A stretch of 63,762 bases of DNA, the filler included. It is 4 parts of 4 records of this genome, joined end to end, with 100 filler letters (N's around TTAATTAATTAA, not from the genome) between each part and the next. Parts side by side here need not be neighbours in the genome. Positions count along the whole stretch, not along the records: positions 21,448 to 42,707 come from DRR378314_636; 3 more parts are not named here. One strand, written 5' to 3'. Of the stretch, positions 30,377-50,068 are shown piece by piece (position 1 is the first letter of the stretch; every line of letters starts with the position of its first letter). Position numbers and translations under genes: made by a program. The notes under the pieces were generated by a model. The model was not told the origin of the DNA. It ran no database searches and was given only the letters and a program-made list of their open reading frames with translations.

Positions 30377-31501
30377 TCATATAGGGATTTGACACCAGAG
30401 CAGCGGGTGTTCACTGGCGGCATCCCGTTCACTTTTGATGCTTTCGAGCTTATCCCATTGCGGGCGTTCCTTGAACCACATCCCTTTTCTGACCAAACCG
30501 CATTTTTCAACCCCATCAAAAAGACCTTCGGACAACATGAGGTAATCGCGTTGTTTGGTGTTCACCCCCATTTTATAGGCACCCAAGCTAAAGTAGCCAG
30601 CATCCTTACCTTTGTCCAGATTTCCCATAAAACTGGGATGTCGCGTAATGTCGGTAAGCCCACTGTCCTTGATCAAGGGGGAAATGGCGCTGCCATAGGC
30701 CGGGGCATTAAGGGTGCCCACCAGTATCGTTCCCATATCGGTACACTCCCCTTGGGCCAGCATTTCTGCAATATGTTTGGATTGTTCCCATTGGCGTTCT
30801 TTAAGCACTTCCCCGCCTGCTGCACGATCTGGAAAATGGGTACAAAGAACGGTAAAGGTCCTGCCAGAAGCCGTTCTGAGCCTATACTCCTGTAAATCCG
30901 TATCAAATATGGGCCTTTCCGAAGCATCAAGTTCATTGGCCCTGGTTCGTATCGAAACCAAATCGATCCCTGCTTTGGCCAAGAGCCCCATACCCCCTCC
31001 GAAAGGGTCATTGGTTCCCATAAAGACAACTTCCCGATAGGGAGCGGTAGCTGCGGAACCCAGGAAATGTCGGTTGAATTCCACTAGGGAGGCACGGCTT
31101 TCTACCTCCGATACCACCAAGATATCCGGGTCCATCGCTTGAATGACCTTGGCCTTGTTCCCAATGGCCCGCTCATCTATGGGCAAAGAGTCGACTTTGG
31201 CCCAACCCTCCCAATCGGTCAAATGGCTTGCCCTAGGTTTATCCATTTCCAGCCTTCTTGAGACCAATAATTGGCCCATGGCATTTCGTAGGGTGTAATG
31301 TGTTGAAAAACCTTGGTCATCAAATCCCAGAAAATGGGAAAGTATGCCCATGCGGTCGAGGTCTTTCTGCGAACGTTGGCCTTGAAGCAATAGCCGCTCA
31401 AATTCCGTTATCCAACGGTCCCTGTTTTCCGCACGGAACCGATGGACCAGATCAATGGGACGGTGAAAGATGTTCTGTAGGTTGTAAAAGGCGATTTTCA
31501 T
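30377..31501 (-). CDS. endonuclease/exonuclease/phosphatase (EEP) family protein
   Basis: MKIAFYNLQN, 'DPDILVVSEVE', THF, 'GTLNA', 'RDY', 'SEHP'. Confidence 0.8.
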   Translation of the reverse strand: MKIAFYNLQNIFHRPIDLVHRFRAENRDRWITEFERLLLQGQRSQKDLDRMGILSHFLGFDDQGFSTHYTLRNAMGQLLVSRRLEMDKPRASHLTDWEGWAKVDSLPIDERAIGNKAKVIQAMDPDILVVSEVESRASLVEFNRHFLGSAATAPYREVVFMGTNDPFGGGMGLLAKAGIDLVSIRTRANELDASERPIFDTDLQEYRLRTASGRTFTVLCTHFPDRAAGGEVLKERQWEQSKHIAEMLAQGECTDMGTILVGTLNAPAYGSAISPLIKDSGLTDITRHPSFMGNLDKGKDAGYFSLGAYKMGVNTKQRDYLMLSEGLFDGVEKCGLVRKGMWFKERPQWDKLESIKSERDAASEHPLLWCQIPI

Positions 31502-31785
31502 GATCGGTCGTTTAACATAAAGTTTTTGTTGTCCATCAAAATCCGATGGATCTCCTCCTCATCATAATAGATGACCCCTCCAAGCTTTGTATAGGGTATG
31601 GTCCCATTGATGCGCAGGTTCCGGAGGGTCCCGGGGCTGATCTCCAATTTCCCCATGACACTGTTGGACTTGATCCATCGATCCAGGGTGATACGGTTAT
31701 GTTGTAACAGGATATCCTTGATCTCTTGCAGAAGGGATGCCTTGAACCCTTCCAGATCCTCTTGCGTTACGATATGTGCTGGCAT
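31498..31785 (-). CDS. HTH_17 excisionase-like DNA-binding protein
   Basis: 'WIKSNSVMGKLEISPGTLRNLRINGTIPYTKLGGVIYY'; stop overlaps the EEP start. Confidence 0.88.
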   Translation of the reverse strand: MPAHIVTQEDLEGFKASLLQEIKDILLQHNRITLDRWIKSNSVMGKLEISPGTLRNLRINGTIPYTKLGGVIYYDEEEIHRILMDNKNFMLNDRS

Positions 31786-32052: not shown

Positions 32053-33078
32053 ATGAAAGAGATGTGGTTTGGAATACTATTGACAATATTGCCCTTGGCC
32101 CCTGTATCCCTGATATCGAAGCGGGCTGGGTCTTTGCCAGCACATTACAGGGAAAGAACGGATCGTTCACGCCTTAAACGGATAAATGATAGTTTTGCCC
32201 CATACAGGACCACCTGTTACCCGCTGCTCCCATGGAGAACAGCAACACCGCACCCAGGGCACGACATGGGAACCAAGGCTAATCCCAAGCCCTTTCCCAC
32301 CTATCCCTATGCCACCCCGTCCAGATGTCAAAATGCAGCATTGCGCATTGCCATCCCCGTAAAGGCAGCCATTCAGGAAAGGCATTTCAACCGTCCGAAT
32401 ATACCATTGGATAGGGTCAGGCCACTTGATGTAACCTATACTTCGGTACAGTTCCATCAGCTGATGGAATCGGATACGGTTTCGGGCAGAGCTGCGGCGC
32501 TTAGCGATACGGAAGCGCTCACAGCTGAAATTTTGGCTCGGGAAGATACCATCAAGGCTCAATTGGTCCTGGCCACCTTACTAGTAGCTTTATTGGCATT
32601 CTTCTATGTCAAATACCGTAAGATGCAAAGCAGACTGAACATCGTGCTTCAGGAAGGTGTGGAACCCACAATAAGCAAAGTACCCAATGCAAATATCATC
32701 CCCATGGACATAGCGCCGGAAGTCGTACAACGGATCCTTTTGGCATTGGACCAATGGGAAAGCCAAAAAGGATATCTCGATCAGGGAACCAGTCTAGGCA
32801 CCTTGGCCACCCTACACGGGACCAATACGAGCTACCTCTCGAAGATCATCAACGTTTATAAGGGACAAACATTCTCACAATACCTGAGGGATCTTCGAAT
32901 CACCCATGCCATCAACCAAATCAAGGAACAGCCCGAGCTTTTAAGGACCCACTCCACGATCCAACTGGCGGAACAATTTGGTTTCAATTCGGTCGATGTC
33001 TTTGCCAGGGCCATGAAATCCAAGATCGGGCTGACCCCTGGTCTGTTCTTTCGAAAAGTTCGCCAAAAACATCGCTAA
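32053..33078 (+). CDS. membrane-anchored AraC-family regulator
   Basis: N-terminal hydrophobic segment, internal TM 'LVLATLLVALLAFFYV', C-terminal 'TNTSYLSKIIN...FSQYLRDLRI...LAEQFGFNS...GLTP'. Confidence 0.8.
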   Translation: MKEMWFGILLTILPLAPVSLISKRAGSLPAHYRERTDRSRLKRINDSFAPYRTTCYPLLPWRTATPHPGHDMGTKANPKPFPTYPYATPSRCQNAALRIAIPVKAAIQERHFNRPNIPLDRVRPLDVTYTSVQFHQLMESDTVSGRAAALSDTEALTAEILAREDTIKAQLVLATLLVALLAFFYVKYRKMQSRLNIVLQEGVEPTISKVPNANIIPMDIAPEVVQRILLALDQWESQKGYLDQGTSLGTLATLHGTNTSYLSKIINVYKGQTFSQYLRDLRITHAINQIKEQPELLRTHSTIQLAEQFGFNSVDVFARAMKSKIGLTPGLFFRKVRQKHR

Positions 33079-33135: not shown

Positions 33136-33948
33136 TTATGCGTTCCCTTTGTCCATATGGGCCTTAAGGGTGTAGGCCATCCCATCCAGGAAGCGGGTCC
33201 TATCCTTTTTCCGGGCACAGATTTCGGTATAGGTTCGGTAACAGTCCCCCAACTCACAATTAAATGCCGATGATAAGGTCTGGGCAATTTCCTTGACCTC
33301 GGCCTTTCCCCCATTGATGGCCCCGGTATGGTGGAGGGCATAGACCAATTCCGTGAGGGCCGCCTTGGTGGAGGACCATTGGAGCCTTGGACGGAACGTC
33401 CCAGAACCCTGTGTATTCCGTCTATCCCTAAGATAGCCAATGGCCCTCCGATAGGCGCGTAATTGCCCCAAGAGCATATCATGGGAGGTCGTAAAGATGG
33501 GGTCCATGGCGATATGGTGGGCATACGTTGGATTGAGCGCATCCTTTTTCTTTCGGGTAAAATACTGCGGATCCCAGTGGGTATGTCCCAATTGTATATA
33601 CTTCCAGAACTGTGCATGCCCCGATAAAAAGGTAGACCATAGCTTCCGTTTTGTCTTGATCCATTGCCTTCGGGCCTTTTTACCGCATACAGGGATTTTA
33701 AGCTCCAAATCCAGGAGTTCCGAATAGTAGATCAGATGCACCAAAGGCACTTGTTTGGTATGCTTAAAAAAATGGATTTCCTCCGCCTCGTCCACAAATC
33801 CCTTGTGCACCACATGATCTCTGAGCTCCCAGAGCCGGGAGCGACATAAGTCAGTGATTTTTTTGGCGGCCTCAATAACGTTGGGCACTTGGGCCTCGAT
33901 TTCCTGTATCTCGGTCTCAAGGGCCGAAGATGTCAACGAATGGTTCAT
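33136..33948 (-). CDS. rteC: RteC domain protein
   Basis: 'EEIHFFKHTK', 'LQWSSTKAALTELVYALH..GAINGG', 'ARKKDRTRFLD'. Start uncertain (33948 or 33969). Confidence 0.85.
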   Translation of the reverse strand: MNHSLTSSALETEIQEIEAQVPNVIEAAKKITDLCRSRLWELRDHVVHKGFVDEAEEIHFFKHTKQVPLVHLIYYSELLDLELKIPVCGKKARRQWIKTKRKLWSTFLSGHAQFWKYIQLGHTHWDPQYFTRKKKDALNPTYAHHIAMDPIFTTSHDMLLGQLRAYRRAIGYLRDRRNTQGSGTFRPRLQWSSTKAALTELVYALHHTGAINGGKAEVKEIAQTLSSAFNCELGDCYRTYTEICARKKDRTRFLDGMAYTLKAHMDKGNA

Positions 33949-34306
33949 ATCCAAAAAATTTATGTACATCGGCAGGCAAGTGTCACGGATTTGGATATTG
34001 GGACAATCGATCGGGAACCCATCCAATATGGCCCATAATGTCTAGGCTACAAAAAATAAGTAACGGCACTTTATAAAAGCAGGTATTTTACCCAACTATT
34101 CCATTCCAACAAAAACATCTCCTGGTCAAGCGAAACCAAAGGTCAGCGATACCCTAAAAACCACTGCAACAGCAAGGGAAGCATTTTATAAATCGCAGCC
34201 CACAATGCCAAAAACAGCCCATACCTCTAGGCTAACGCTCCCCCCCCTACCATACCCCTTGTCCGACATAGCTTCTGGAAAAACGCTGCAAATAGTCGGA
34301 TTTTGA

Positions 34307-34431: not shown

Positions 34432-34872
34432 ATGAAATCAGTATCCATACAAAAGAAAACTATAATAGGTACCATCTCCATCCTATTCCTTGTGCTGTTT
34501 GTCTACACGGCCAGCAGCAAATTGTTGAACCTTGGACTTTTTGAACTGCGGTTGGGCCGTATGCCCTATATCGCGCCATATGCCAGTCTTTTGAGTTGGA
34601 GTGTACCCTTAATGGAATTGGTGATCGCTGGACTATTGTTGACTCCCAAATTACGGATAATAGGCCTGTATGCCAGTGGCATCCTATTGACTTTATTCAC
34701 CATCTATATTATTGCCGTTTTGCAATTCAGCGATGACATCCCCTGTTCTTGTGGCGGTATCATTTCATCCCTTGGATGGACAGATCACATCATCTTGAAC
34801 AGCTTTTTAGTGGTACTTGCCTTACTGGGAATCCTTTGGTCCAAGAAACAATACAATATTCAAACCCATTAA
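34432..34872 (+). CDS. MauE/DoxX family redox-associated membrane protein
   Basis: Four TM helices, 'LFVYTASSKL', 'E', 'DIPCSCGGII', 'HIILN'. Confidence 0.88.
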   Translation: MKSVSIQKKTIIGTISILFLVLFVYTASSKLLNLGLFELRLGRMPYIAPYASLLSWSVPLMELVIAGLLLTPKLRIIGLYASGILLTLFTIYIIAVLQFSDDIPCSCGGIISSLGWTDHIILNSFLVVLALLGILWSKKQYNIQTH

Positions 34873-34943
34873 AATACTGTACAGTGACAGGGGAAGCCGA
34901 AAACCTAGAATAGAGTAGGCATTCACTTATAATACTTAACATT

Positions 34944-35189
34944 ATGAAAGCTAAATTTTTCAAATTGTTGTTACCGGCCTTCGCCATCTTGATGGCGGTG
35001 GGCTTGGCCTTTGCCACGGAAGAAAGTCCTGTGGTCCAACAAGGCTATTATTTCCATCCCATCAATGGATGGCAGTCCACCACGGTGGATGCAAATTGCC
35101 TTGATGGCAATCAAATCGCATGTACCGAAGATGGGAATCAATTGTATGAAGCCCCTTCATTCAGCAGTAGGGAACTTCGCAAGGACTAA
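34944..35189 (+). CDS. small secreted two-cysteine peptide (DUF6520-like)
   Basis: 81 aa; signal peptide ending AFA; mature part contains C-x7-C and DGNQ twice. Confidence 0.8.
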   Translation: MKAKFFKLLLPAFAILMAVGLAFATEESPVVQQGYYFHPINGWQSTTVDANCLDGNQIACTEDGNQLYEAPSFSSRELRKD

Positions 35190-35215
35190 TTCCGTTGCTC
35201 ATTGAGCATGTAATT

Positions 35216-35244
35216 AAAAGGTGCCTTTTGCAAGGCACCTTTTT
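35216..35244. terminator. bidirectional intrinsic terminator
   Basis: AAAAGGTGCCTT-TTGC-AAGGCACCTTTT between the convergent peptide and protease genes. Confidence 0.9.
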
Positions 35245-35314
35245 CCAACTAACTCAAATAAACGCCATAAAACAAAGTGTATACTTATGATTCACGGCTA
35301 ATCTTCAGAATGTA

Positions 35315-37627
35315 CTACCATAGAACTTCCATCTTTTTGAGGCATAGTTGCCAATGTCCCAAGGTAGGCGCGTCCTTGTTGCGTTTGATGCCTTTTTCAA
35401 TATCTCTTTTCAAATCCATCAATCGCTGCATCAATATTCCCTTCTCGTAATCTGTATAATCCGCTTGGGTTTCGATGGCATTGAATCCTTTTCTTTGCTT
35501 TTGTAGATTACTGACGGCTATATCAATATAGGTCATCTGGAGTTCCTGTCTCCTTCGGTTCACTTGGCCAAAATGCTTCCTCAGTTCGCTGAAAAGTCCA
35601 TCTTGGACCCGTATCAGATAGGCATCCACCAATCCTTTTTTTACCCATTTGGTTTCCATATGCTCCATTCGTTTCAATCGTGCGGCGCTAATCAATTCCG
35701 CAAGCAGGTACTGTTGGTGTTCGATGAGCTTGTCGGCATATCTGGTATAATTGATTTCCAAATGGAACTTGGGATCCGTCAACCACTGAGGGGCATCCAT
35801 GGCATTTTCCATCAGAAAATCCAAGGCTTCCATCTGTTTTTCCCAGGGTATCAATTCATAAGGGTCTCCGGGTCGATCTAAGGGTTGATGGTGTATGGTA
35901 TGCCCACCTACCATGGAAAGGACATGCCGCATATGATCGTACCATAGTTTTGCCGTCTTTGTATAGAGCCGTTCCAGACGTACATTGTCGGTATCACCTT
36001 CAACAACTTTGGGCAACAGGTCTATGACCCTTTCGATATTCTTCATGGCCAATTCGGTGCTCCGTACCGGATGGTTGGTTTCGGTCACTTCATCCACTTG
36101 GTCAGGCCCTCCCTTTTCCATTTTACCATAATTGAAACGGTACCAAGGTACCGTGTCCTGCCAACGGATCATTTCCTCGAGTTCGGCCGCTTGAGCTTCT
36201 GGGGTGGTCCCTTCCGGAAACTCCCGATACCCCCATTGGATCTGGTAGTGGTCGGCAGGTCCGACATGTTGCAATAAGAGGTCCGGAGGGATACTGTCCT
36301 CGGGCTGGGGAATATTGGTGCTCCTAGTATAGTTCATGGCACTGGGGGTATGACGCATTTTTCTTAGCCACAGGCTATCGTTCATTTTATCCCATGGATA
36401 GGCATGTTCCCCGAAATTACCGTCCATCAAGCCGAACACATGTCCTGCCTCATGGGAAGCCAATCGTTGATAAAGTGCCCCGACCAGCTCATCTGGAAAA
36501 GGGAATTGTTGTGCCCTTTTGTCCAATGGAGCCGCACGTATAAAATATTGCTCCGACATATCACGGACAGATGCTTCCAATAGGATATCACCGCGAAGGA
36601 TTTCCCCTGACCTCGAATCGGCCACAAACCGAATGGAACCGCCCAGTCGTTCATTTTCATAACTCCGCATGTCCCTCTTCGGTGTCCAGTACACGATATT
36701 GGAATGAATGCTATGGGCTTGCCATTCGTCCAAACTATCCAGTTCTTTCACGATCAGGGCATTCTTGAACCCAGCCGCTTCAAAGGCCGGCAACCATTGC
36801 TCTATACCTGCCTTTACATAAGGTCTCCATTTTTTTGGGATTTCAGGGGACAATAAAAGGGTAATGGGTTCGATTGGGACACTGAGCTTTTGATCCTTGA
36901 ACTTTTTCTCCAAGCGCCACCGAAGAATATTGCCCCGAACGTTCTGGAGCTCTCCATGAGGACCCGCATCGGCTTCATCACCAAAGAATCCCATCCGATA
37001 ATCGAACCGTCGCCCCATCATGGGTGCTTTCAGGGCACTAAATCCATAAAACAAGGGGACGGCCACCTTGGATTCATCTCTGACCATTCCCCGCCGAACC
37101 TTGATCAAGGTTTCCCTGTCCAGGTTCTTGGTGGCCAGGGCCAGGGATATCTGGGGAACGGACGGCCCAAAGTTCACCCCGAACCACTGGGGCCATTCAA
37201 TCTCCTGTCGCAACAAAAGGTCCGTGACCTTGACCACATGGTTCCCATCCCCACTGAATTCTTTTTCAATGGGGAGTATGGCCAGGATATTCTCCTTAAA
37301 GGGGTACTTTTCATGGAAGGTGATCGTGATGCCCGCCGTGGACTCAATGCTCTGCTGTTTGAACAGGATATTGTCCCCCTGCACCGACCAGGCCACCTGC
37401 ATAAAACTGCGATGCCTCCAATCATAGCATACAAATAGCATGGAATGGTCAAGTACTTCCTTGGGGATGTTCAGGTATACATCGTCCCCATGCATAAATG
37501 AGCTCAAAAAGGCTTTGGTTTCCACCGATTGGATGACATTGCCCAAGGAGTCGGTCTCTTGCGAGATTACCGTTGCCTCAGCCAATGAACCCCATAAAAG
37601 GAGCAACAAGAGCATATATTTTTTCAT
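35315..37627 (-). CDS. secreted zinc metalloprotease (EcxA-like / DUF5117-DUF4953 metzincin)
   Basis: Signal peptide; 'RRFDYRMGFF', 'PKKWRPYVKAGIEQW..AFEAAGF', HEAGHVFGLMD, Met-turn SAMNY. Confidence 0.88.
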   Translation of the reverse strand: MKKYMLLLLLLWGSLAEATVISQETDSLGNVIQSVETKAFLSSFMHGDDVYLNIPKEVLDHSMLFVCYDWRHRSFMQVAWSVQGDNILFKQQSIESTAGITITFHEKYPFKENILAILPIEKEFSGDGNHVVKVTDLLLRQEIEWPQWFGVNFGPSVPQISLALATKNLDRETLIKVRRGMVRDESKVAVPLFYGFSALKAPMMGRRFDYRMGFFGDEADAGPHGELQNVRGNILRWRLEKKFKDQKLSVPIEPITLLLSPEIPKKWRPYVKAGIEQWLPAFEAAGFKNALIVKELDSLDEWQAHSIHSNIVYWTPKRDMRSYENERLGGSIRFVADSRSGEILRGDILLEASVRDMSEQYFIRAAPLDKRAQQFPFPDELVGALYQRLASHEAGHVFGLMDGNFGEHAYPWDKMNDSLWLRKMRHTPSAMNYTRSTNIPQPEDSIPPDLLLQHVGPADHYQIQWGYREFPEGTTPEAQAAELEEMIRWQDTVPWYRFNYGKMEKGGPDQVDEVTETNHPVRSTELAMKNIERVIDLLPKVVEGDTDNVRLERLYTKTAKLWYDHMRHVLSMVGGHTIHHQPLDRPGDPYELIPWEKQMEALDFLMENAMDAPQWLTDPKFHLEINYTRYADKLIEHQQYLLAELISAARLKRMEHMETKWVKKGLVDAYLIRVQDGLFSELRKHFGQVNRRRQELQMTYIDIAVSNLQKQRKGFNAIETQADYTDYEKGILMQRLMDLKRDIEKGIKRNKDAPTLGHWQLCLKKMEVLW

Positions 37628-37665
37628 AACGGATTGTTTTAAAAAAAGTGTAAATCATAGCAGTC

Positions 37666-39105
37666 TTAATAGCCTGGGTTTTGTGGCAATAGATTTGGAT
37701 TGGTCTCCAGTTCGGTCTCCGGGATAGGCAACAGCAAATCGGTAGGTCTCCAATTGGGCTTGATCAGGCCCAAAACCTGATCGGCCCTTCCGGATCGCTT
37801 TAGATCGAACCATCTATGGCCCTGTTCCGTAAAGAGCTCCACCCTACGTTCCTGAAAGATGGCATCCATGATAGTTTCTGGTGTATTGGCATTACTATCA
37901 GGAAGACCTGCTCTAGTTCGAAGGGCATTGATATCTGCCAAGGCACCATTTAAATCACCCAGGTATACCCGCGCTTCGGCACGGATCAGATATTGCTCGG
38001 CCGCCCTAAAATGAATGGAATATTCCAAGGACTGCGTCTCATTGATATCGGCCTTGTACTTGTGGGCGTAACGTAATGTGACGGTATTATCGGCATCGGA
38101 CACGCTGGAGACCCATTGATCTAAACGTCGATCCCCATTTTCAAACGCATCGAGTAGTTCGTTCGTAAGGGCATATCTCTGACCTGGAATTGCCTGTATG
38201 ATCAATTCGATGGCCTCTCGGGTATTTCTGATATTTTCAGCATCCGCTTTGAGCTGCCAGATGGTCTCAGAAGACCCCTTCAGGAACACTTGGCCCAAGT
38301 CCTGTTCCAATGGAAAGTCACTGATCAGTTCCGTGGACAGTGAAGCGGCATTATCCCATTCCCCCACATAGAGATACATCCGTGCCAATAGGGCCTTGGC
38401 CGTATGGACATCCACGTAAATACGTTCCGAAGAAATAGGCTCACTTTCCTCCAATAGTGCCAAGGCTGTTTCCAAATCGGTAATGAGATGATCGTATACG
38501 TCCGTGGTCGACAAACGTGCTATATCATTATTTGTCGTGTAATCCGTACTAGTGACATAGGGCACATCGCCGTAAATCGATACCAAGAGACTATGGATAT
38601 AGGCCCGGATAAAAAGGGCCTGCCCCTGATATAATCCTTTTTCTGCTTCAGTGAGGTCTTGGGATGCTTCCACGCCCAAAATGATATCATTGGCCCCGTA
38701 GATAAGTTGGTAGGCCTGGCTCCACCATGCCCTTATCAGCTCATTACCGACCAGTACGTTATGGTTGTACAATTGGGTATAATCGGAATTGAACCCATAA
38801 TAATCGAGTTCATCGGCATAGATGCCCATCGCGGTGGACAAACCAAAGGAACCTGATACCATACCTTGTTGGTCACGCATACCAAAGTAGAGCTGGGCCA
38901 AGGCGGATTCCACTGTAGCGGGATCTTCAAAAACGGTCTCTGCGATCAAGGTATTCTTGGGTGGTTCTACGCTTACAAAGTCCGAGCAACCGATAAGGGT
39001 CAATGCCATGGCCATAAGGCCCAGGGCACCTGACAAGGGGAAAGTAAGCCTGCGTTGGGGGCTACTGTCCACGTTTGTATATGTTGTTCTATTTATGATT
39101 TTCAT
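37666..39105 (-). CDS. RagB/SusD family lipoprotein
   Basis: Lipobox LIGC, 'YGDVPY', 'RAAEQYLIRAEA', 'ERRVELFTEQGHRWFDLKR', 'QNPGY'. Confidence 0.95.
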   Translation of the reverse strand: MKIINRTTYTNVDSSPQRRLTFPLSGALGLMAMALTLIGCSDFVSVEPPKNTLIAETVFEDPATVESALAQLYFGMRDQQGMVSGSFGLSTAMGIYADELDYYGFNSDYTQLYNHNVLVGNELIRAWWSQAYQLIYGANDIILGVEASQDLTEAEKGLYQGQALFIRAYIHSLLVSIYGDVPYVTSTDYTTNNDIARLSTTDVYDHLITDLETALALLEESEPISSERIYVDVHTAKALLARMYLYVGEWDNAASLSTELISDFPLEQDLGQVFLKGSSETIWQLKADAENIRNTREAIELIIQAIPGQRYALTNELLDAFENGDRRLDQWVSSVSDADNTVTLRYAHKYKADINETQSLEYSIHFRAAEQYLIRAEARVYLGDLNGALADINALRTRAGLPDSNANTPETIMDAIFQERRVELFTEQGHRWFDLKRSGRADQVLGLIKPNWRPTDLLLPIPETELETNPNLLPQNPGY

Positions 39106-39120
39106 GCTACTGATTTATGG

Positions 39121-42100
39121 TTAAAAACTGATTTGAAGTCCCAATGAGATCTGTCGCAAAGGGGGCAATCGCGTATTGGAGGGCTGTTCAGGATCGGGAC
39201 CCCTGTAATCGGTCAATGTCCAAAGGTTCTGTCCCTGTAGGTATACATTGACGTCCAATCCGTTCTCCAATGTGGGAATCTTGTAGTTGAGGGCTATGTT
39301 GCGTAAGCGTACAAAGGAAGCGTCCGATACGGCCGCATCGCTTTCCTGTTGGAATTCCCCCAATCCCCCAGTGGGGGCCAAGCCGCTATAGGCCCTTTGG
39401 ATATCCGTGACATCACCGGGCTCTTGCCAGCGGTCATATAGTTCCACGGGCACATTGCCCCTGAAACCGGGGGTCGATTGAAACCGCAGTGTATTATAGG
39501 CCCTTTGTTTTTTGAACTGGAAGAAAAAGTCCAAGGACAGGTTGCCCCAACTAAGTGAGTTGCCCAGTCCTCCATAGTATTGTGGGGCCAGGTCTTCGAT
39601 CCATTCCCGGTCTTCTGTGCTGGTGATGGCCCCATCGTCATTATAGTCCTCGAACTGGTAGGACCCTGTTTCGGGATCGACGCCCAAGGAATTATATAAT
39701 CGAACAATGGTCAAGGGTTCCCCAATGACATACCTATTGGCAAATGTGGAGGTCTCCAATCCATCAAATTCCACCAATCTGTTCTTGGGTATGGTCAGAT
39801 TGAACGTGGTGGACCATCTGAAGTTTTTGGAACGAACGTTGACCGTTTGAAGGTCGATTTCCCATCCCGTGTTTTCAACGAGGGCGTCAAAATTCCCGGT
39901 CAGTTCCGAAAAGCCCGTCGTGGCAGCCAAGGGTATGCCCACCAATTGATTGGAGGAACGGTTTCGGTACCAGACCGTATTGACCATCAAGCGATCTCTG
40001 AAGAATCCGAGTTCCAGGCCTGCCTCCAATTTTTGGTTCTCTTCCCAACCAAACTGCGGATTGAAGATGCCAGTAGGCTGCACCGTGGTGACCCCATCAT
40101 AATCATTTCCAGTAACGGTGTAGGTATCCAAGAACCGATAGTCCCCGACATTATCGCTCCCCGTGGTTCCATAACTGCCCCTTAGCTTTCCGAAGCTCAA
40201 CCATGATCCTTCCCCAAAAATAGGTTCTTCGGAAAATACCCAAGCTACGCCAAGTGCCCCGAAATTCCCGAACTGTCTGCCCGGACCGAATCGGGAGGAA
40301 CCGTCCCTTCGACCCGTCAGGTTAAGGATATACCGGTCCTGCAATTTCAGGTTGATGCGTCCAAAAAGGGCATTGTACTTGTATTCGCCATCCGCATCGG
40401 AAATGACCTCGATCCCACTGGCGGCCGCCATATTCTCGATCAATCCGTTATTGGGAAATCCAATCCCCCGCAAAACCAGTTGTTGGGTAGTTTCCTCTTG
40501 GAAGGTGGTACCCAAGAGCACATCCATGGATAGCCAACCCCAATCCTTTTTCCAGTTCAGTTGGGGCTCCACGATCCATGATTCCCTTTGGGAGGCATTG
40601 GTATTCAAATTGGAATAACTCTGGGGGGTGAGACCCATGCCTGGGTTCCTTGCCGAACTGGGCATGGTCCTGTAAGTGTCCAACCGATAATTGGTATACC
40701 CCAAACTGGATCTGAACTCCAGATTAGGGAGTAACTCATAAGATAAAACGGCATTGGATACCAAGGTATTGGATAGGGCCACATACCGTTCTTCCAAAGC
40801 GGCCAAAGGGTTGTCCCAGGTATTGTTTTCCCAATTGATGTTCCCTTCATCATCAAAAAGTCTAGGGGCATTGGGCTCCAAAGTGTAGGCTTCCGTTGTA
40901 AAATCGGTCGCTGGCAGCGTATTGTCCTCGTGGGTATAGCCCATGGAAAAATTCAACGTAAAACGTCCATTATCCGAACGATGTGACAAGTTACTGAGCA
41001 CATTGGCCCTTTGGTAGTTGCTGTCTCCGGGAAAGACCGTGGTCTCCTTCAAAAAGGCTCCACTGACCAAGAACTGGGTCCGATCACTGCCACCGGATAC
41101 CGACAGTTGCGCATTGTTACGGTAGGAGGTGCCTCCGATCAGTTCCCTTTGCCAATCGGTATAACGACTGTTGTCCCAGGATTTGATATCGGGCCATACA
41201 AAATCGAAGTCGGGATTTTCCAAAAAGGCCCCAAATCCATCATTGATAATGCCTTCCCTTCTTGTTTCCAGATACTGCTGGGTATCCATCAGGTCCAGAA
41301 AATTGGATACCTTACCAAAGGTTGTGGTTAGATGTGCATCAAAGCGGGTTTTCCCTGCCCTTCCTTTTTTGGTGGTGATCAATACCACCCCATTGGCCCC
41401 GCGGGAGCCATAGATGGCCGTGGCATCGGCATCCTTCAACACCTCAATGCTTTCGATATCGTTGGGATTGATGGCATTGAGCGGACTGATGTTCCCGCCA
41501 ACAATCTGGTTGGAGACCCTTGTGGAGCCCAAGGATTGGGAACCAAAAGGTACCCCATCCACTATGAACAGGGGATCAGTGGTCCCACTGAGAAAGTTGC
41601 GACCCCGTACTTCAACGGTAAATCCCCCTCCGGGCACACCGGTATTCTGGACGATATTGACCCCCGACATTTGGCCTTGCATGGCCGCCAAGGCGTTGCC
41701 CACGGGCTGTTTATCGATCACTGAAGCCTTTACCGTGGCTATGTTCCCAGTGCGCTCCCGCTCCGAGACCGAATAATAGCCCGCATTGAGCACTACTTCG
41801 CCCAATACCGTCACATCCTCTTCCATGGTAACGAGGACCTCTTCCCTACCCGCAATGGGAACGGTAAGGGTCTTAAAACCGATCATGGAAAAGATCAGGA
41901 CATCGGAAGGTCCTGCATTAATGGCAAAGGAACCGTCAAAATCGGACATGGTCCCGATATTCTTGGATTCCACCACAAGGTTCACCCCGGCCAGGGGATT
42001 CCCAGACGTATCGGTCACGGTGCCGGAAACGGTGGCCTGTGGTGGTTCCAAGAAAGTGCCCGCTTGCAGATTAAATGAAAGAAAGGGCATTAGAAAGACA

Positions 42101-42153
42101 TATAGGAGCACAGGCAGGATTCCCCTGCGCATGCATATTATTGAATGTTGCAT
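39121..42153 (-). CDS. SusC/RagA family TonB-dependent outer-membrane transporter
   Basis: Likely start MQHSII at 42153; 'DPLFIVDGVP', 'DIESIEVLKDADATAIYGSRGANGVVLITTK', 'RRDGSSRFG', C-terminal F. Confidence 0.96.
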   Translation of the reverse strand: MQHSIICMRRGILPVLLYVFLMPFLSFNLQAGTFLEPPQATVSGTVTDTSGNPLAGVNLVVESKNIGTMSDFDGSFAINAGPSDVLIFSMIGFKTLTVPIAGREEVLVTMEEDVTVLGEVVLNAGYYSVSERERTGNIATVKASVIDKQPVGNALAAMQGQMSGVNIVQNTGVPGGGFTVEVRGRNFLSGTTDPLFIVDGVPFGSQSLGSTRVSNQIVGGNISPLNAINPNDIESIEVLKDADATAIYGSRGANGVVLITTKKGRAGKTRFDAHLTTTFGKVSNFLDLMDTQQYLETRREGIINDGFGAFLENPDFDFVWPDIKSWDNSRYTDWQRELIGGTSYRNNAQLSVSGGSDRTQFLVSGAFLKETTVFPGDSNYQRANVLSNLSHRSDNGRFTLNFSMGYTHEDNTLPATDFTTEAYTLEPNAPRLFDDEGNINWENNTWDNPLAALEERYVALSNTLVSNAVLSYELLPNLEFRSSLGYTNYRLDTYRTMPSSARNPGMGLTPQSYSNLNTNASQRESWIVEPQLNWKKDWGWLSMDVLLGTTFQEETTQQLVLRGIGFPNNGLIENMAAASGIEVISDADGEYKYNALFGRINLKLQDRYILNLTGRRDGSSRFGPGRQFGNFGALGVAWVFSEEPIFGEGSWLSFGKLRGSYGTTGSDNVGDYRFLDTYTVTGNDYDGVTTVQPTGIFNPQFGWEENQKLEAGLELGFFRDRLMVNTVWYRNRSSNQLVGIPLAATTGFSELTGNFDALVENTGWEIDLQTVNVRSKNFRWSTTFNLTIPKNRLVEFDGLETSTFANRYVIGEPLTIVRLYNSLGVDPETGSYQFEDYNDDGAITSTEDREWIEDLAPQYYGGLGNSLSWGNLSLDFFFQFKKQRAYNTLRFQSTPGFRGNVPVELYDRWQEPGDVTDIQRAYSGLAPTGGLGEFQQESDAAVSDASFVRLRNIALNYKIPTLENGLDVNVYLQGQNLWTLTDYRGPDPEQPSNTRLPPLRQISLGLQISF

Positions 42154-42707: not shown

Positions 42708-42807
42708 NNNNNNNNNNNNNNNNNNNNNNNNNNNNNNNNNNNNNNNNNNNNTTAATTAATTAANNNNNNNNNNNNNNNNNNNNNNNNNNNNNNNNNNNNN
42801 NNNNNNN
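42708..42807. other. artificial contig spacer
   Basis: 44 N + TTAATTAATTAA + 44 N. Confidence 0.99.
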
Positions 42808-42861
42808 CAAACAAACAAACAAACAAACAAACAAACATAAACAAACAGACAAACAAACAAA
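42808..42861 (+). repeat. (CAAA)n microsatellite at contig start
   Basis: Tandem CAAA with CATAAA and CAGA interruptions. Confidence 0.95.
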
Positions 42862-43103
42862 GAATATACACAATGCACCCGATGATACCGGCCGGGCGGA
42901 GCTGCACTCCACGGCCTTGCCGAGCTATGCCGCGCCAGTAAGCACTATTCAGCGCCAGCTGCTCCTATAGGTCCTCCCGAATGCGACAACAATACATTCT
43001 ATGTACATGTAGCCTACATTATTTATCCCTGAATTCACTAGACGATTGGTACATGAGCGGGTTGGACTGCGTGTTGCATGCATGGCTGGCGCACCATACG
43101 CAG

Positions 43104-43992
43104 GGGTCCTGGCTCGGCTACTTTGATATCGACGGAGAGCGCATGTGGAGCATTTCCAAGTGCGGAGGTACGTCCGAAAATGTTTCAGAACCAATTGTTC
43201 GAATACTCTTTCGAAGTCCCAGTACAACAACAAGCTAAATGCAGTGTACAGTCGCACTCGGAAGGTACAGAATGCGCAAAGTAGCTGCACACTCTTATTC
43301 CCTTGCAGGTAGCTGGGCCACGTTCCGTCGCACGGAAACCACGCAGCGGAGCCCCCGCACAGCAGAAGTACCTGTCGTGCGAATCATCTGCCACAACACT
43401 AGACCCTGGAGTACCAACAACTTACATGTACATCTACTATGAAGGGCGACGGACAGAATATGTCGGCGACGCTCCGCATCCTCCGTATGAGCCGCCATCG
43501 TATCGCTTCCTACCAAAACTGCACCGCATCCATGGGTTTTCTGTCCGCGTCTCCTACCTCTGAGCAATCGGCGCTTGTTCCTTGCTGCACCACGCGAAAT
43601 TTTCGCCTCTCACAGACTTTGCGAAACCCATCCCTGTTGAACAACCGCTTCGCTCTGATTCGCGGTATCGAGAAGACCTCCAGTCGCTCATACGAGGGAA
43701 CAAAGATGAGGCACAAAAGGTACAAGTGCGCCGTTGCAAAGCACAGCCAAATGTCCTTCTGGCGAGCTGCACCTGTACGCGATTCGTCGCCCAGTGCGGG
43801 GGACCTGTGTCCCCTCCGCCTATTCCAAGCCAATTGAAGCGATCAGACTCGCACTAATGCGCGGTGACCATTGGTTCTTACGTACAAGCAATGGCGATGA
43901 TGCTGTGACACAACGATATGCAGGCAAAAGAACTTATCGAAAATGCCCAGCGCCGGGACGCACGGCTCCGCCAGAAAGCAATGCGCTCCTGA
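43104..43992 (+). CDS. oxysterol-binding protein (OSBP/ORP) family, last three exons
   Basis: GT-AG exons 43104-43167, 43616-43719, 43924-43992 join in frame to GSWLGYFDIDGERMW...PLRSDSRYREDLQSLIRGNKDEAQKAKELIENAQRRDARLR, the ORP C-terminal signature. Confidence 0.85.
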
Positions 43993-44231
43993 AATGACGA
44001 CAAGAGGGACATGCGCCAACGGATGCTTGCACAGCGCGCATCGTCATCACACAGGCAGCCACGCCGGTCTATACCTCTACACAACATCCCCTTTTATTGA
44101 ATACATGAACAGAATAGCATGCCGCATGTAACCGCAGAGCGAACGCTGGTGCACACAGCGCTTCGCCTGCTTCGCTACAGCAGTCCAAATGGTACACCGC
44201 GTCGTTCTCCTTCGTATCCAGTGCAAAAGCA

Positions 44232-47200
44232 TCAGCGCCCGCGTCTTCGGCGCCTCATAACATAGAAAAGCGGAATTCCAGAAAGAATAAAAAGAGATGC
44301 GATCGCACTTTGCCACGGTACCTGGAAAGGGAATCCACGTCGGGTGCACATAATCGAAACACTGCACTCAGCGAGGAAGCGCAACGCGTAGCCAAGCATG
44401 GTACGCGCACGCGCCACAAGAGAACGCGAGCAGAAAAGACCTTCAGGTCCTCTCACAGCAGCCAAAAAAAAAAAAGAGAGCAAGACCCTGGATGAGGCGC
44501 AACACCAACGAATAACAGATATCAACGCCATATGTTTTAATGCTGAGGCTGAACGACTGGGCTGAACGATTCGTGCCTTTCAACGCGAAACAAGCGCAAC
44601 CTACGCCAGTCTTGCGCACCCAAGGTCCTACCTGGGCAAACGTGTTGCCAGCAACCAAGACAGCACCCATCGCAAAGAGCATCGGGCTAAAAGGAACAAG
44701 CGGTGCCCGGAAGATGTGTCGATCACCGCTTTGAGACCGGTGCGCCTCCTCATTGCTTGTATGCTCCTCGCGTGCGCATTCCCCCGAGCTCCCGTCCTCG
44801 GCACCCATTTCGATGCCACCGTCCTCATCGCCACTAAAGAGAGGCCTGCGCGGTCACGGCACGCACAGACGAGAAAACACGGAACAGCAATAGAGTGCAC
44901 AAATGATTTTCTTCACCGACACTTCTTGTGATCAATGTATGGTTGCGATAAAACAGAGAACCGCGCGACATACGAGTACATGCGACGCGAGTGTCACCGA
45001 CGCACTCTTATCTGGCCGAGCGAGACTGCTCGCCCGCAGCGGTACACATGGGAGGGGGGGGGCGTATCTCCGCTGTAAGTGCGGTGATGCTGCGTCGTCT
45101 GTACCTGGCTTCGTGGTTAAGTCTGTGGATGAAGCAGCGCAATTGTTTGCAGCGCACAATCTACACACCACAACGGACGACGGTGCAGTACGCTCCCCTA
45201 GGGGCTCTGAGCACCAACTCGCCTGCAAAGCGGAGAAGCGTTCCGCTGCTTACCGACAGTCGTACCTAGCTTCGCGCGAACCACGCCGATCCATCTTGCG
45301 AAATTTGACAACGCATAGTGCGGCCAGTCCATAAAATATGTTTGCACCGAAGCCAAAGTAATCGACAAGTCGCGAAAAGTCGCCAACAAGGACAAGTCCG
45401 ATCGCCCATACGCATCCGACGCCAATGGCAACGCGAGGAGCCCCGCCCCGCGCAGTTCGGGCCAGTGCGGCTGGAAAGTACCCCTGCTTGGGGCGAAGGG
45501 AATGCAAACGTTAACATGAGCGCGGGCCTGACAAGCAAACCAAAGTACCTGCATACCATGCGAAGCGCCTGTGCAAAACCTCAACGCCAGTGCCTTGCAA
45601 CGCGATTCGCGTGTACAATTCATCCGGCAGCTCGACAGCAAAGGCAGCGTGCCCCGGCTGGGCGTGTCTCGCGGCGTCTTCGCGCGAACAGCGGAAACCG
45701 GCCACGCGCAAATACGCGGCTCGACCCCGTACCTTTTCCGCAGTCGCCTGATATAACCGCGAGCCTGTAAGAATGGAGCCATTCACCGTTCCCAGCGCCG
45801 ATATGGCGACAAGTACGGGAATAACCTTTGCGGCAGATTCGCCAATCAGCGCTCTTGCAGCCTGCACACCACCAAGCAGCGGTCCGATGCAGCGCAGAAA
45901 GTCAACGCACAATCAGAACCAGCGCACGCCCGACACCGGGCGTACTTGAAGGGCATGATCTGGTACCGCTCCGCGCCAAATCGTTTAGCAACTATATCGA
46001 TGAATTGATGTTTTGTCACACGGTGCTCAAGCTTCCTCTACTTGTAGAGATGGGGTGCCCTGCGAAAGGTTCGGCCAACGGAGCCGGGCGATCGCCTGCC
46101 GAGGACTGCGTGCAGCAACTCGCCGGTACGTTGGCTCTACGTACGTCTGTGGCAACGGCGGACGAATCCACCACTGCCGCAGGCCCGAGAAGCACTAAAT
46201 ACGCAATATTGACGAGGACATATGCCGCTGTAACAAACGTTACTCCCAGAAGAATGGCCAGGGGGAGATTCCGTTCCGGTCGAACAACCTGCACAATAGG
46301 CACCGCCACGATTTGCGCTTGAATGAGGCCACTGGTTTCCGGCACGGGGATACAATACCGGCGCGACCTGATTCGCAGGCATAGTGCACTATCGCACACC
46401 CCACTCACAACACTTGATCGCAGTGCTGTGGATGTAAATTGTTAGTCCGCATGGAATAGAAGTCCGCAATTATCCATCATCCATGAACCTACGATCCCGC
46501 GGCCCACGTCAGACCAGCTGTACAGGCACTGCGGGCAACACCGAAACGCATGGGCTACACTGCCCAATGCAATTTTTTTTCTGTCTTCGCATCCTCGTAC
46601 CCTCGCTGTCTTGCTTATCTGCATCCTTCTCGTCTGTACTCTGACATGGGAGTAGGACGCATACATATCTCCACTTTCCTTTCTCTTTCACAGCTTCAGC
46701 AGCCACGCGACAGGAAACGTCTACGGGGACAGGCACTGGCTACCCAGCAGGCTTCCGCTATACTCTTACACGCAATGATGCCCGCTGAACAAGGACAAGG
46801 TAGGCCATACCACGTCAAGGGCCTCTACCATTTCTACCATTCTTGTAGCATTACCGGCACAGTGCGCAAATGAGGCCTTCGCGGCGAGCTACACGGATTG
46901 CGCAAGCGCATGCCCAAGCCAATCGTGCCATGCGACTCTCTCACTATCGAGCACCACACCCGTCCAAACACACCGCACCCAGCGCGTTGTTCAGGTACGC
47001 CCACCCGTCAAATGCCCACAGCGCAGCAATAAGAGCATGTCCCACCTGCACGCGTAAGAGCCATCGCACAGAAAACGGGGCAAGCAGCAGCCCGTAAGAA
47101 GGTGCCCGCTAACAGATGCCAGCACATCAGCGCACGCGACCACCCTTCGGATGTGCAGCGGCAGCGTCGCCAAACGTATCGCACATGCGCGTATGATGCT

Positions 47201-48962: not shown

Positions 48963-50068
48963 GAGAGCCGCCGCCCAAGAGCGAATGCGAACACCAGCTT
49001 CTCGTTACACACACGCAACAGTGCTTCCAAATATAATTTCGACTTGTACCGCACCAAGTGCACTGTCGTGCGTGCACTTCCCTGCTCGCCCCTCACCCGA
49101 GAGGTCAAGGAAAAGTGTGCTGGGCTCTGCCACACCTGTCGAACGCGCAGAGTCGCTCCACCTGCTCGACAGAAAGTTTCCAGACCATAAATATTTCCTT
49201 ACCCCTATCACAAGCGTGGCCAGAATCGAAGAAATCCACCAGGGTTTTTGTCGTAAACCCCCACCAGCTGGATCCACACCTCGCCCGCGGACGAGACTCT
49301 CCCGTCGCTTTTCCAGCGGCAGCACGACCGAAGCGCTGCAGACCCCTTCGGTCGGCGCTGGCGCACACCGTTTGCACCGTCGCTCCTTTCCCATATCCAA
49401 TCGCAATGGTGTACGAAAGGATGTGGTAGGCGTAAGATGAAATAAGAGTACCGGGATTGTGGCACGAGCGAGCCCAGCAGTTGTGCTACGCGCTCGCTCC
49501 ACAGCCGCGCGACCCTGCAATTGCTACGCTGCTCGTGCGGTGCGGCTTCTTGTAGTGCAATCCTTCACTGGCTGCTACAGACGAGCTTTCACAACGGAGA
49601 ACACTCCTTCACGCTCCCTCGATTGCAGTCTGGCATAGCATCCGCTTTCCAAGCGAGGTACCGCTGTGTGCCAAGCGTCGTCAGGGCGAGCGAATGCTAC
49701 TTCTCACGTCGCCAGGGGAAATGCTCAACCGCCCGCGCATATGCTAACTCGCAAACATAGCCCATACCAAATGCGCAGTACGCATGACAGCTACCGCATA
49801 GTGTCGACGGTATGGCAGCGCAACACCGCTGTCCTCTTCTCATGAGATGCATTCCGACGCAGGTGCCACAGTGGCAGTCGCCCCCCTGTCCAGCCCCACC
49901 CAAGCGCTGTCAGTTTTATGGATATTGTATTCGAAAGCACTTTTCTCTGCGCCCATTCCCCATTCCTTTTGCGCTCAGCTCTCGGCCGTGCTCGCCGTAA
50001 AGAGGCGCACAGTGAGGACTTGTACGCCGGAACGGGCAAAAAGGGATGCATAACGCATAGCTGCTTGC

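Follow-up and report, generated by a model that had tools for sequence, protein, structure and literature searches.

The stretch of DNA analyzed here (hereafter, the window) has a length of 63,762 nt and consists of four contigs joined end to end. One of them, DRR378314_636 (positions 21448–42707, 21.3 kb; hereafter, contig B), carries a locus in which a MauE-type membrane protein, a small secreted protein of the DUF6520 family, and a SusC/SusD transporter pair (SusCD) are encoded side by side. The mauE gene (34432–34872, plus strand; PF07291, 106.3 bits against a gathering score of 27) is followed by the gene of the 81-aa DUF6520 precursor (34944–35189, plus strand; PF20130, 52.9 bits versus 25.4). 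These two genes converge with an operon on the minus strand, which encodes a SusC/RagA-type TonB-dependent transporter (39121–42153; TIGR04056, 709 bits versus 368; TIGR04057, 66.8 versus 46.2), a SusD-family surface lipoprotein (37666–39105; PF07980 and PF14322) with the lipobox Cys40 (LIGC, residues 37–40), and a DUF4953 metzincin as the third gene (35315–37627; 224.9 bits). Both transcription units run toward a common bidirectional intrinsic terminator (35216–35244), whose hairpin at positions 35216–35243 is flanked by A- and U-runs. The 71-nt stretch containing it (35195–35265) has a folding energy of −22.1 kcal/mol (z = −4.3), and none of 200 shuffled sequences was as stable; a consensus promoter and terminator scan did not detect this terminator, and it was located by reading and folding the sequence. 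No glycoside hydrolase or other carbohydrate-active enzyme (CAZyme) family was found by Pfam in the 17 open reading frames (ORFs) scanned on contig B, and no CAZymes occur among the neighbor ORFs of the relatives examined, so a polysaccharide utilization locus, for which the SusCD pair lacks a CAZyme, is ruled out. A sequence-only reading of this stretch had described a MauE with a CSC motif ahead of a secreted peptide with a C-x7-C pattern, a converging susC-susD-metalloprotease operon with a shared terminator, and the lack of CAZymes; all of this holds, with Pfam support for both small genes.

The DUF6520 precursor has a Sec-type signal peptide ending at AFA/TEE (residues 1–24, MKAKFFKLLLPAFAILMAVGLAFA; 34944–35015, plus strand), which belongs to a conserved left block described below, and a mature mini-protein of 57 aa with a net charge of −6 (35016–35189, plus strand, stop codon included). 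Its cysteines, C52 and C60, form the C-x7-C pattern and are candidates for a disulfide bond. When comparing the relatives, the signal peptide is near-invariant, whereas the mature part is invariant at the cysteines only; the mean pairwise distances are 0.26 and 0.66, respectively. Two classes of the peptide can be distinguished by the number of cysteines. The mean net charge of the mature peptide is −6.6 in the 2-Cys class (n = 42, range −14 to 0) and −2.6 in the 4-Cys class (n = 31). The AlphaFold2 model of the window peptide has a block-mean pLDDT of 83–93 over residues 31–81, with a predicted beta-hairpin at residues 32–48. A Foldseek search with this model against the PDB gave no matches at E ≤ 0.001, and an Atlas search with the peptide returned DUF6520 clusters only. 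The DUF6520 profile found 304 cluster representatives (E ≤ 0.001) among 1.84 billion proteins; the top 150 representatives listed are 66–132 aa in length and all stand-alone. Neither DUF6520 nor the combination of MauE, DUF6520, and SusCD genes is described in the literature searched, although subscription journals and supplements beyond it may hold a description; the same literature contains no description of DUF4953, DUF5117, or DUF7793 and nothing relevant on the DUF805b RNA or on RteC together with SusC.

Species-representative genomes were searched with a profile built from relatives of MauE, and 79 loci (numbered with the prefix L) were collected together with 10 kb on either side. Their six-frame ORFs were then searched with the window proteins, the DUF6520 profile, and representatives of newly seen neighbors. 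For 69 loci, the sequence downstream of MauE extends to 6 kb or more; 65 of these contain a convergent SusD–SusC pair. The E-values of the module SusC proteins against the window SusC range from about 0 to 1e-230, versus 1e-8 to 1e-53 for other SusC paralogues of the same loci; the SusD and SusC proteins of the 65 loci represent one orthologous clade. In the Chitinophaga locus L062, SusCD is co-directional, and the order of genes is extracytoplasmic function (ECF) sigma factor, FecR, SusC, SusD, MauE, a beta-propeller protein, the peptide, and a further ECF sigma factor, FecR, SusC, and SusD. The three loci without SusCD (Niastella L037, L043, and L066) also lack the peptide. Since L062 joins the 65 convergent loci and the loci without SusCD are those without the peptide, every DUF6520 peptide locus with enough sequence (66/66) has an adjacent SusCD. 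MauE, the peptide, and SusCD are therefore a conserved unit and not a chance neighborhood: in the co-occurrence survey that the sequence-only reading had called for, the genes do not assort independently.

The full module was found in Flagellimonas, Allomuricauda, Pareuzebyella, Yeosuana, Galbibacter, Cellulophaga, Algibacter, Confluentibacter, Croceivirga, Flavobacterium, Snuella, Flaviramulus, Gillisia, Flavivirga, Seonamhaeicola, Gelidibacter, Polaribacter, Aequorivita, a Saprospiraceae metagenome-assembled genome, and Chryseosolibacter. RteC, a regulator of integrative and conjugative elements (ICEs), is encoded upstream of MauE in 47 of the 69 loci; when only the full-module loci with 9 kb or more of upstream sequence are counted, it lies no more than 10 kb away in 47 of 60. 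Other copies of the module lie beside a set of relaxase, MobC, and type IV coupling protein genes (L050, L064, L078), beside PRTRC genes (L003, L074), or in the core chromosome next to rpsF-rpsR-rplI, priA, QRPTase, and rlmH (L072, L075). In the last two loci, FecR and an ECF sigma factor precede susC; apart from these, an adjacent FecR and ECF sigma pair was found only in L062. The whole unit is tandemly duplicated in L053. A tblastn search of MauE against plasmids gave no match at 1e-10.

A comparison of the window with two relatives indicated that the locus is composed of parts with different histories. Relative to L001, the amino acid identity is 95% for TraG, 98% for RteC, and 82% for MauE, and it is 42% for the peptide, 41% for the metzincin, 58% for SusD, and 75% for SusC. 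Relative to L058, TraG was not found, the identity of RteC is 32% and that of MauE is 48%, and the values for the peptide, metzincin, SusD, and SusC are 72%, 76%, 75%, and 83%. The 91% identical DNA block common to the window and L001 ends at position 35026, at the end of the signal-peptide codons; DNA homology between the window and L058 extends from 34725 to the end of the contig. In all six further locus pairs, a left block of 7–10.5 kb with 79–92% identity stops 80–110 nt into the peptide gene, and the identity past the joint inside the peptide gene is 64–76%. The parts of this mosaic locus meet abruptly within the peptide gene, where the signal part borders on the mature part.

Distance correlations were calculated from global alignments for 32 loci of the 2-Cys/metzincin class. 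The distances of the mature peptide correlate with those of the metzincin (r = 0.77), SusD (r = 0.65), and SusC (r = 0.55), and hardly with those of MauE (r = 0.17), of its own signal peptide (r = 0.14), or of RteC (r = 0.08); the signal-peptide distances, in turn, correlate with MauE (r = 0.61). The correlation of the mature peptide with the metzincin persists in a partial Mantel test given MauE (r = 0.77, p = 2e-4), while that of the mature peptide with MauE given SusD is r = −0.18 (p = 1). When the Mantel test was based on local identity, an unreliable measure for peptides this short, the genes ranked in the same order and the values were lower. The co-diversification of the peptide and SusD, suggested earlier as a check, is thus positive.

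The CXC motif of MauE is C105-S-C107. The sequence P-C-S-C-G is invariant in 22/22 sequences, and the second Gly of PCSCGG is found in at least 90% of them. From these features and from the topology read by the positive-inside rule, we infer that MauE is a four-helix membrane thiol oxidase with the P-C-S-C-G-G loop facing the periplasm. According to the available text of a preprint (10.64898/2026.03.05.709764), MauE is a DsbB-like oxidase that can replace DsbB in Escherichia coli, its CXC motif is essential, and it usually works via a thioredoxin-fold partner. No such partner is encoded in the window. A protein of about 370 aa with an N-terminal membrane helix, for which neither Pfam nor NCBIfam holds a family, follows MauE or forms a fusion with it in 30 loci (L053:10453-11574, L034:10001-11533, and 28 others). 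An Atlas model of this protein (pTM 0.83) resembles the 6-bladed TolB_like/BF3164 beta-propellers (TM 0.63–0.66), and the protein looks like a membrane-anchored 6-bladed beta-propeller. The peptide was detected in 28 of the 30 propeller loci and is of the 4-Cys class in all 28; in the 41 loci without the propeller, all 41 peptides are of the 2-Cys class. This correspondence is the best evidence that the MauE side acts on the peptide, and it lends indirect support to the link between MauE and the peptide drawn in the sequence-only reading. In the three Niastella loci, MauE adjoins a helix-turn-helix (HTH) protein and a LanC-like/kinase protein in place of DUF6520 and SusCD; this kinase and lanthipeptide-synthetase-like protein (L037:10988-13138, L043:10978-13128, and L066:11044-13257) is a second link of this MauE clade to peptide maturation.

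A structured RNA leader of the peptide gene (34882–34925, plus strand) lies between mauE and the peptide gene and contains a match to Rfam RF02914 (DUF805b) at 34887–34921, with 48.3 bits against a gathering score of 35.6. The family is also above its gathering score in L001, L010, and L025. The window leader consists of a 4-bp stem and a loop-to-tail helix and ends 18 nt before the ATG. Our own model, R1, built from 24 instances and run on 1.51 Mb of loci, gave 57 matches, all on the strand of the peptide gene; 55 of them lie 13–28 nt upstream of the peptide start codon, and the other two are at cut locus ends. The motif is present at 55 of the 73 peptide genes. In L072 and L075, where the peptide gene is located upstream of MauE, the motif moves along with the peptide gene. 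The loop triplet pairs with the 3′ tail (helix 2), with covariation in 4/4 pairs: for example, the pair 19–45 is GC in 16 instances, AU in 14, and GU in two, and 90.6% of the cells are paired. The covariation score of helix 2 was reached by none of 500 shuffles, and the leader is therefore an H-type pseudoknot, although helix 2 is not annotated in the consensus line of Rfam DUF805b. This motif is named for other genes, and here it precedes the DUF6520 peptide genes as their leader; it reportedly comes from Weinberg 2017, the main text of which does not mention DUF805.

As for the convergent operon, the ATG at position 42153 gives a SusC of 1010 aa, similar to the relatives (1005–1020 aa), with CarboxypepD_reg and Plug domains; its N-terminus is a signal peptide followed by CarboxypepD_reg from residue 41. 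Since TonB-dependent transporters are importers, SusCD was rejected as the exporter of the peptide. Co-folding of SusD (41–479) with the mature peptide (25–81), in which alignments were not used, gave a score of 0.00 against a mark of 0.34 and speaks neither for nor against binding. The metzincin has a Sec signal without a lipobox and a weak DUF5117 N-terminal domain. Its motif HExxHxxGxxD (H392, E393, H396, G399, and D402) is invariant in 38/38 aligned orthologues, and HExxHxxG is found in 42/42; a PDB sequence search gave no matches and hence no solved homologue.

The third-gene slot after susD varies among the 65 full loci. According to Pfam and NCBIfam, it holds a DUF4953 metzincin in 41 loci, a Peptidase_S9 in 12, a thioredoxin or ResA/TlpA-like protein in eight, an M16 peptidase in two, and nothing in two. 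The protease counted among the members of the set in the sequence-only reading is thus one of several possible occupants of this slot. The best matches of the thioredoxin-like proteins are ResA and TlpA, and the best NCBIfam match of the S9 protein in some relatives is the Atxe2 model, with 108 bits, far below the cut-off of 400. S9 and M16 peptidases are restricted to substrates of oligopeptide size. Together with a ResA/TlpA-like reductase, which would open a disulfide, these enzymes fit a 57-aa disulfide-locked substrate. The peptide was rejected as a dedicated protease inhibitor, given that the class of the partner enzyme varies or the enzyme is absent.

The co-variation, which is strongest with the metzincin, also agrees with a rival reading in which the peptide is a toxin directed against other strains or other ICEs, which enters through this SusCD clade and against which the co-varying protease or reductase provides degradative immunity. 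A conserved N-terminus followed by a variable C-terminus and variable downstream genes resembles polymorphic toxin/immunity cassettes, and anionic microcins use TonB-dependent receptors. The available text of PMC6671954 describes bacteroidetocin loci with a small Cys peptide, a protein with five transmembrane segments, and a thiol oxidoreductase. However, class II bacteriocins and bacteroidetocins do not resemble acidic, folded peptides exported by Sec; neither a double-glycine leader nor a C39-peptidase/ABC exporter was found on contig B, the element would need to encode the very receptor through which its own family of toxins enters, and two loci have no third gene at all. A bacteroidetocin or class II bacteriocin locus was rejected on the leader, the exporter, and the acidity of the peptide, the bacteriocin-like function proposed from the sequence alone is weakened by the same features (−6 in the window, mean −6.6 in the 2-Cys class), and we consider a toxin quite unlikely.

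The association of these genes is real and has been strengthened by the comparisons, and it is quite probable that they are functionally coupled. We tentatively propose that they form a "secrete-and-recapture" module, in which a MauE-oxidized, self-made mini-protein is retaken by its cognate SusCD and opened in the periplasm; the mechanism is plausible, and we put its chances a little short of even. The DUF6520 precursor would be exported by Sec, with its expression set by the pseudoknotted 5′ leader. In the periplasm, the CXC loop of MauE would form the C52–C60 disulfide, directly or through a thioredoxin-fold partner of the host, and for the 4-Cys variants, the membrane-anchored beta-propeller would assist the oxidation. 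The resulting compact acidic mini-protein would be released from the cell by a route that is not visible on contig B, bound by the cognate SusCD encoded opposite, and imported in a TonB-dependent manner. The third-gene product would then open or destroy it in the periplasm: the metzincin in the window and, in other loci, an oligopeptidase of the S9 or M16 type or a thiol-disulfide oxidoreductase similar to TlpA/ResA. Diversification of the mature peptide goes along with that of the protease and SusCD, against a conserved signal peptide, MauE, and ICE backbone, and this would result in private peptide/receptor types. That the peptide is the ligand of SusCD is itself nearly a balanced question, leaning slightly to the negative.

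Several observations weigh against this proposal. The correlation with the mature peptide declines with gene order (metzincin > SusD > SusC), as linkage would have it, and over the roughly 0.6 kb beyond susC, no right-hand end of the variable block was found. Consequently, recombination on the conserved DNA of the signal peptide could mimic co-adaptation, and the co-variation could result from linkage alone. No positive selection on the mature peptide was found (dN/dS of 0.07–0.73 in five close pairs versus 0.06–0.24 for the neighbors). The survey covered the top 80 of no fewer than 583 MauE matches; many of these loci are related ICEs, and they are not independent samples. The leader motif has no match at E ≤ 0.1 for 18 of the 73 peptide genes, all of the 4-Cys class. 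The window SusC has no N-terminal signaling (STN) extension; among the long SusC N-termini of the relatives, an STN search pointed to L046 only, below the threshold. In a PDB sequence search, SusD matches RagB with E = 2.6e-06 versus 1.6e-25 for other SusD homologues. The sequence-only reading had pointed to RagAB-type pairs as peptide transporters; SusD is not specially RagB-like in its sequence, which still leaves room for a RagAB-like way of working. Finally, contig B encodes no type IX secretion C-terminal domain, lipobox, or ABC exporter for the peptide, which has only its Sec signal, and the mini-protein may never leave the periplasm.

The decay of co-variation with distance is what would be seen if the locus held two independent cargos: a susC-susD-peptidase operon for the uptake of nutrient peptides or proteins, and MauE with DUF6520 as an unrelated periplasmic pair, which travel together in a successful ICE lineage. 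SusCD pairs with peptidases and without CAZymes are commonly read as protein or peptide utilization loci, and most of the sampled loci are related ICEs, as the frequent RteC upstream indicates. Against this stands the persistence of the association in chromosomal and other mobile contexts and down to an identity of 42–50% for SusC and 32–45% for SusD, as well as the duplication of the whole unit in L053 and the adjacent SusCD at all 66 peptide loci. Moreover, enzymes of four classes replace one another as the third gene next to a constant peptide and SusCD, and the mature peptide shows coupling to genes as far as 7 kb away and none to MauE or to the signal peptide of its own precursor. We regard independent cargos as a rather unlikely explanation.

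If the mini-protein stayed in the cell, it could be a periplasmic accessory that modulates the SusC plug or FecR, or that inhibits or chaperones the third-gene enzyme. The lone Sec signal and the predicted periplasmic orientation of the active loop of MauE agree with this, and periplasmic inhibitors whose genes adjoin those of metzincins, such as AprI/Inh, are known. However, a single small fold would have to inhibit partners of the metzincin, S9, M16, and thioredoxin types, or none, and the window SusC lacks a periplasmic signaling extension. Such an accessory role seems improbable to us.

As for the purpose of the proposed secretion and recapture, self-recognition signaling is favored, although we assign it only a modest chance. 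The output would go to the RteC/AraC region in the ICEs and to ECF sigma/FecR in the chromosomal copies. Signaling is favored because a hypervariable ligand is carried on a conserved scaffold together with a co-varying receptor block, because the module is located in a regulatory region next to RteC (with a LytTR/kinase/regulator set in L025), and because it is wired to ECF sigma/FecR in other genomes. A more specific version, an ICE "pherotype" system, would have the private SusCD sense a disulfide-locked mini-protein made by the element, which would next be processed in the periplasm, with an output that sets RteC-dependent excision and transfer, so that an element would recognize cells in which its own type is already present; the chromosomal copies would use ECF sigma autoinduction. 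This version is a long shot.

The same FecR and ECF sigma genes also suit the main alternative to the signaling purpose, a carrier ("-phore"), in which the acidic mini-protein, once released, would bind a nutrient in short supply (a metal ion, for example), the private SusCD would retake it, and the protease or reductase would free the cargo. This logic is known from the hemophore/HasR and pyoverdine/FpvA systems and has been proposed as a role of isopeptidase-type lasso peptides. The gene order of L062 and the FecR/ECF sigma pair by SusC in L072 and L075 are similar to those of loci that signal through a self-made ligand, pyoverdine receptors and ligands diversify together, the 2-Cys peptides are strongly acidic, and degradative or reductive third genes would suit the release of a cargo. 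In the available text of PMC9266682, clusters with a lasso peptide, an isopeptidase, a TonB-dependent transporter, and a sigma/anti-sigma pair are likened to siderophore systems. However, the cysteines aside, the mature part has almost no conserved polar side chain, which is unexpected for a specific ligand site, and it shows no His, Tyr, or Met pattern of known hemophores. Export machinery is not visible, and there is no obvious reason for a carrier to be placed inside an ICE regulatory region. We consider a carrier a rather unlikely reading.

When comparing the module with known systems, the nearest described architecture is that of the isopeptidase lasso clusters (astexins, AtxE2, a TonB-dependent transporter, and a FecI/FecR-like pair). 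As far as the available text of PMC9266682 goes, they combine a locked ribosomal peptide next to a TonB-dependent receptor, a sigma/anti-sigma pair, and an S9 enzyme that opens the lock; they have no ABC exporter, their products are mostly not antibiotics, and their function is still called enigmatic. Unlike them, the window and the relatives examined lack the genes of a lasso cyclase and leader peptidase, so the locus is an analogue and not a member of the lasso peptide clusters. The proposed lock is a disulfide formed by MauE and the locked product a mini-protein of 57 aa exported by Sec; a Bacteroidota SusCD serves as the receptor, and the class of the opening enzyme is variable.

RagAB of Porphyromonas gingivalis is a SusC/SusD-type pair for peptides rather than glycans and, as here, has no CAZyme in its locus; its substrates are foreign peptides taken up as nutrients, and it is not known to have a self-encoded ligand, whereas the module described here has a candidate self-encoded ligand. 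The bacteroidetocin (class IIf) loci likewise encode a small secreted Cys peptide by a multi-pass membrane protein. The thiol oxidoreductase in these loci is thought to form the disulfides (available part of PMC6671954), and the peptides themselves carry a double-glycine leader, depend on an ABC exporter with a C39 peptidase, and target BamA (available part of PMC8546649). In contrast, the peptides described here are acidic and have a Sec signal, no exporter, and a dedicated SusCD. Membership of the locus as a polysaccharide utilization locus, a RagAB orthologue, or a bacteroidetocin locus was ruled out by gene content, the sequence kinship of SusD, and the leader and exporter, respectively. 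In the MauE/MauD pair of methylamine dehydrogenase maturation, MauE belongs to the same family with the same CXC site and, according to the available text of 10.64898/2026.03.05.709764, serves the disulfides of a small secreted Cys-rich polypeptide. Unlike that system, the window has no mau genes or MauD-type thioredoxin, and the candidate substrate is an unrelated 2-Cys mini-protein.

The HasA/HasR/HasI-HasS and pyoverdine/FpvA/FpvR systems combine a self-made ligand, a TonB-dependent receptor, and a sigma/anti-sigma pair in one locus, similar to L062, L072, and L075, and in these systems, the ligand and receptor diversify together. The mini-protein, by contrast, is a tiny disulfide fold without known cargo, and the window copy has RteC and AraC as neighbors and no FecR. 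In ICEBs1 (RapI-PhrI) and the enterococcal pheromone plasmids, a Sec-exported peptide encoded by the element is re-imported and reports the presence of like elements. The module comparably adjoins the ICE regulator RteC, and any effect on ICE transfer would be purely conjectural. Those systems, however, are Gram-positive and use Opp permeases and short linear peptides, and no Rap- or PrgX-type receptor is found here.

The remaining genes of contig B indicate the element in which the window copy resides. The conjugation gene block of a CTnDOT-type ICE (21790–28104, minus strand; Pfam) includes DUF4138/TraN-like (21790–22617), TraM (22655–23596), two ORFs between TraM and TraG without a Pfam match, an ORF with sub-threshold Pfam matches only (25085–25690), and the TraG ATPase (25687–28104), all on the minus strand. 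Between TraG and a small HTH_17 (excisionase-type) DNA-binding protein (31498–31785, minus strand; PF12728, 3.8e-07) are Amidase_3, DUF6904, and a 374-aa ORF (30377–31501, minus strand) without a Pfam or NCBIfam family. This ORF is conserved in L001 and L002 and, more distantly, in six other loci, where it adjoins the HTH_17 gene; HTH_17 itself is found upstream of the module in 44/69 relatives. Next follow an AraC-family regulator (32053–33078, plus strand; Pfam, HTH at residues 251–334), whose real start is probably downstream of the first ATG, and RteC (33136–34026, minus strand; PF09357, 195 bits), which is divergent from mauE. With TraG, TraM, DUF4138/TraN-like, and RteC as hallmark genes, contig B has Bacteroidota tra genes and RteC on one molecule, as in CTnDOT-type ICEs. 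The closest relatives of its proteins are from Muricauda, Allomuricauda, and Flagellimonas, and contig B is an ICE contig of a marine flavobacterium (Flavobacteriaceae). No integrase or element ends were seen in the 10-kb flanks of the relatives, and contig B is cut at both ends. The ICE-borne location claimed in the sequence-only reading thus stands for contig B but not as an intrinsic trait of the module, which is also found in the core chromosome with ECF sigma/FecR.

In the usual ICE layout, HTH_17, RteC, and an 800-aa alpha-oxoamine-synthase/GNAT fusion are encoded on one strand, and DUF7793, PAS-AraC, MauE, and the peptide are divergent from them and followed by the convergent susC operon. 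In a shorter form of this layout, found in the window, L001, L002, and L073, RteC is the immediate neighbor of MauE; relatives of the window-type AraC were found only in these three loci, and most loci have a different PAS-AraC and DUF7793 in this place. The fusion of an alpha-oxoamine synthase with FemAB/GNAT is located directly upstream of RteC in 41/69 loci (for example, L010:5906-8311) and is absent from the window. It is similar to BioF and serine palmitoyltransferase, with a weak match to the model of CqsA-type autoinducer synthases, and could be a synthase of a small-molecule signal or lipid tied to ICE regulation. In the Galbibacter locus L025 (6000–9807), genes for a LytTR protein, a histidine kinase with TPR, and a response regulator occupy the interval between RteC and MauE instead of the synthase, DUF7793, and AraC, so the regulatory input of the module is interchangeable. 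Small XRE-type HTH proteins are encoded after susC in ICE-type loci (L010:18463-19982, L023, L025, L064, and L077), in L010 together with an IrrE/ImmA-like M78 peptidase, and the element therefore extends beyond the cut of the window contig. Contig B ends 554 bp from the susC start on the upstream side, at the artificial joint at 42708–42807 that cuts the locus, and the far side of the locus is thus outside the window.

Runs of N at 21348–21447, 42708–42807, and 56493–56592, each of the form N44-TTAATTAATTAA-N44, indicate that the window is not a single molecule, and arguments from gene neighborhood are invalid across these joints; a citrate-synthase ORF (20418–21395) even extends into the first of them. 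The GC content of contig B is about 0.43–0.51 (mostly 0.46–0.51), versus 0.53–0.62 on the flanking contigs. Contigs A (1–21347) and D (56593–63762), with a GC content of 0.53–0.62, carry proteobacterial-type genes (two MdoG, a GT2 that is likely MdoH, ShlB, YceI, UvrD, a cbb3-type cytochrome c, and an OmpR/HisKA pair) and are probably from another organism than the flavobacterial contig B. Contig C (42808–56492) begins with a (CAAA)n microsatellite and has a GC content of about 0.55–0.59 and a strong AT skew of 0.13–0.21; no Pfam family was found in its seven longest ORFs, and it may be non-coding or non-bacterial DNA.

Among the transporters of Bacteroidota, SusCD pairs are the signature type, and they are nearly always interpreted as importers of glycan food and rarely of peptide food. 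If the proposed recapture is true, a SusCD clade invariably accompanied by the gene of its own secreted mini-protein would represent a new use of SusCD, namely the recapture of a self-made ligand, whether a signal or a carrier. It would also provide a testable function for DUF6520, for a MauE clade outside methylamine dehydrogenase, for the membrane-anchored beta-propeller, and for the DUF805b RNA. The sharply bounded, co-varying peptide/receptor block offers natural specificity variants that are ready-made for experiments. Should the pherotype reading hold, this would be the first TonB-dependent peptide signal of quorum or kin and the first function for DUF6520, this MauE clade, and the DUF805b pseudoknot. 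Given that the module is located beside an excision regulator in widespread ICEs of marine flavobacteria, it may bear on the decision of these elements to move.

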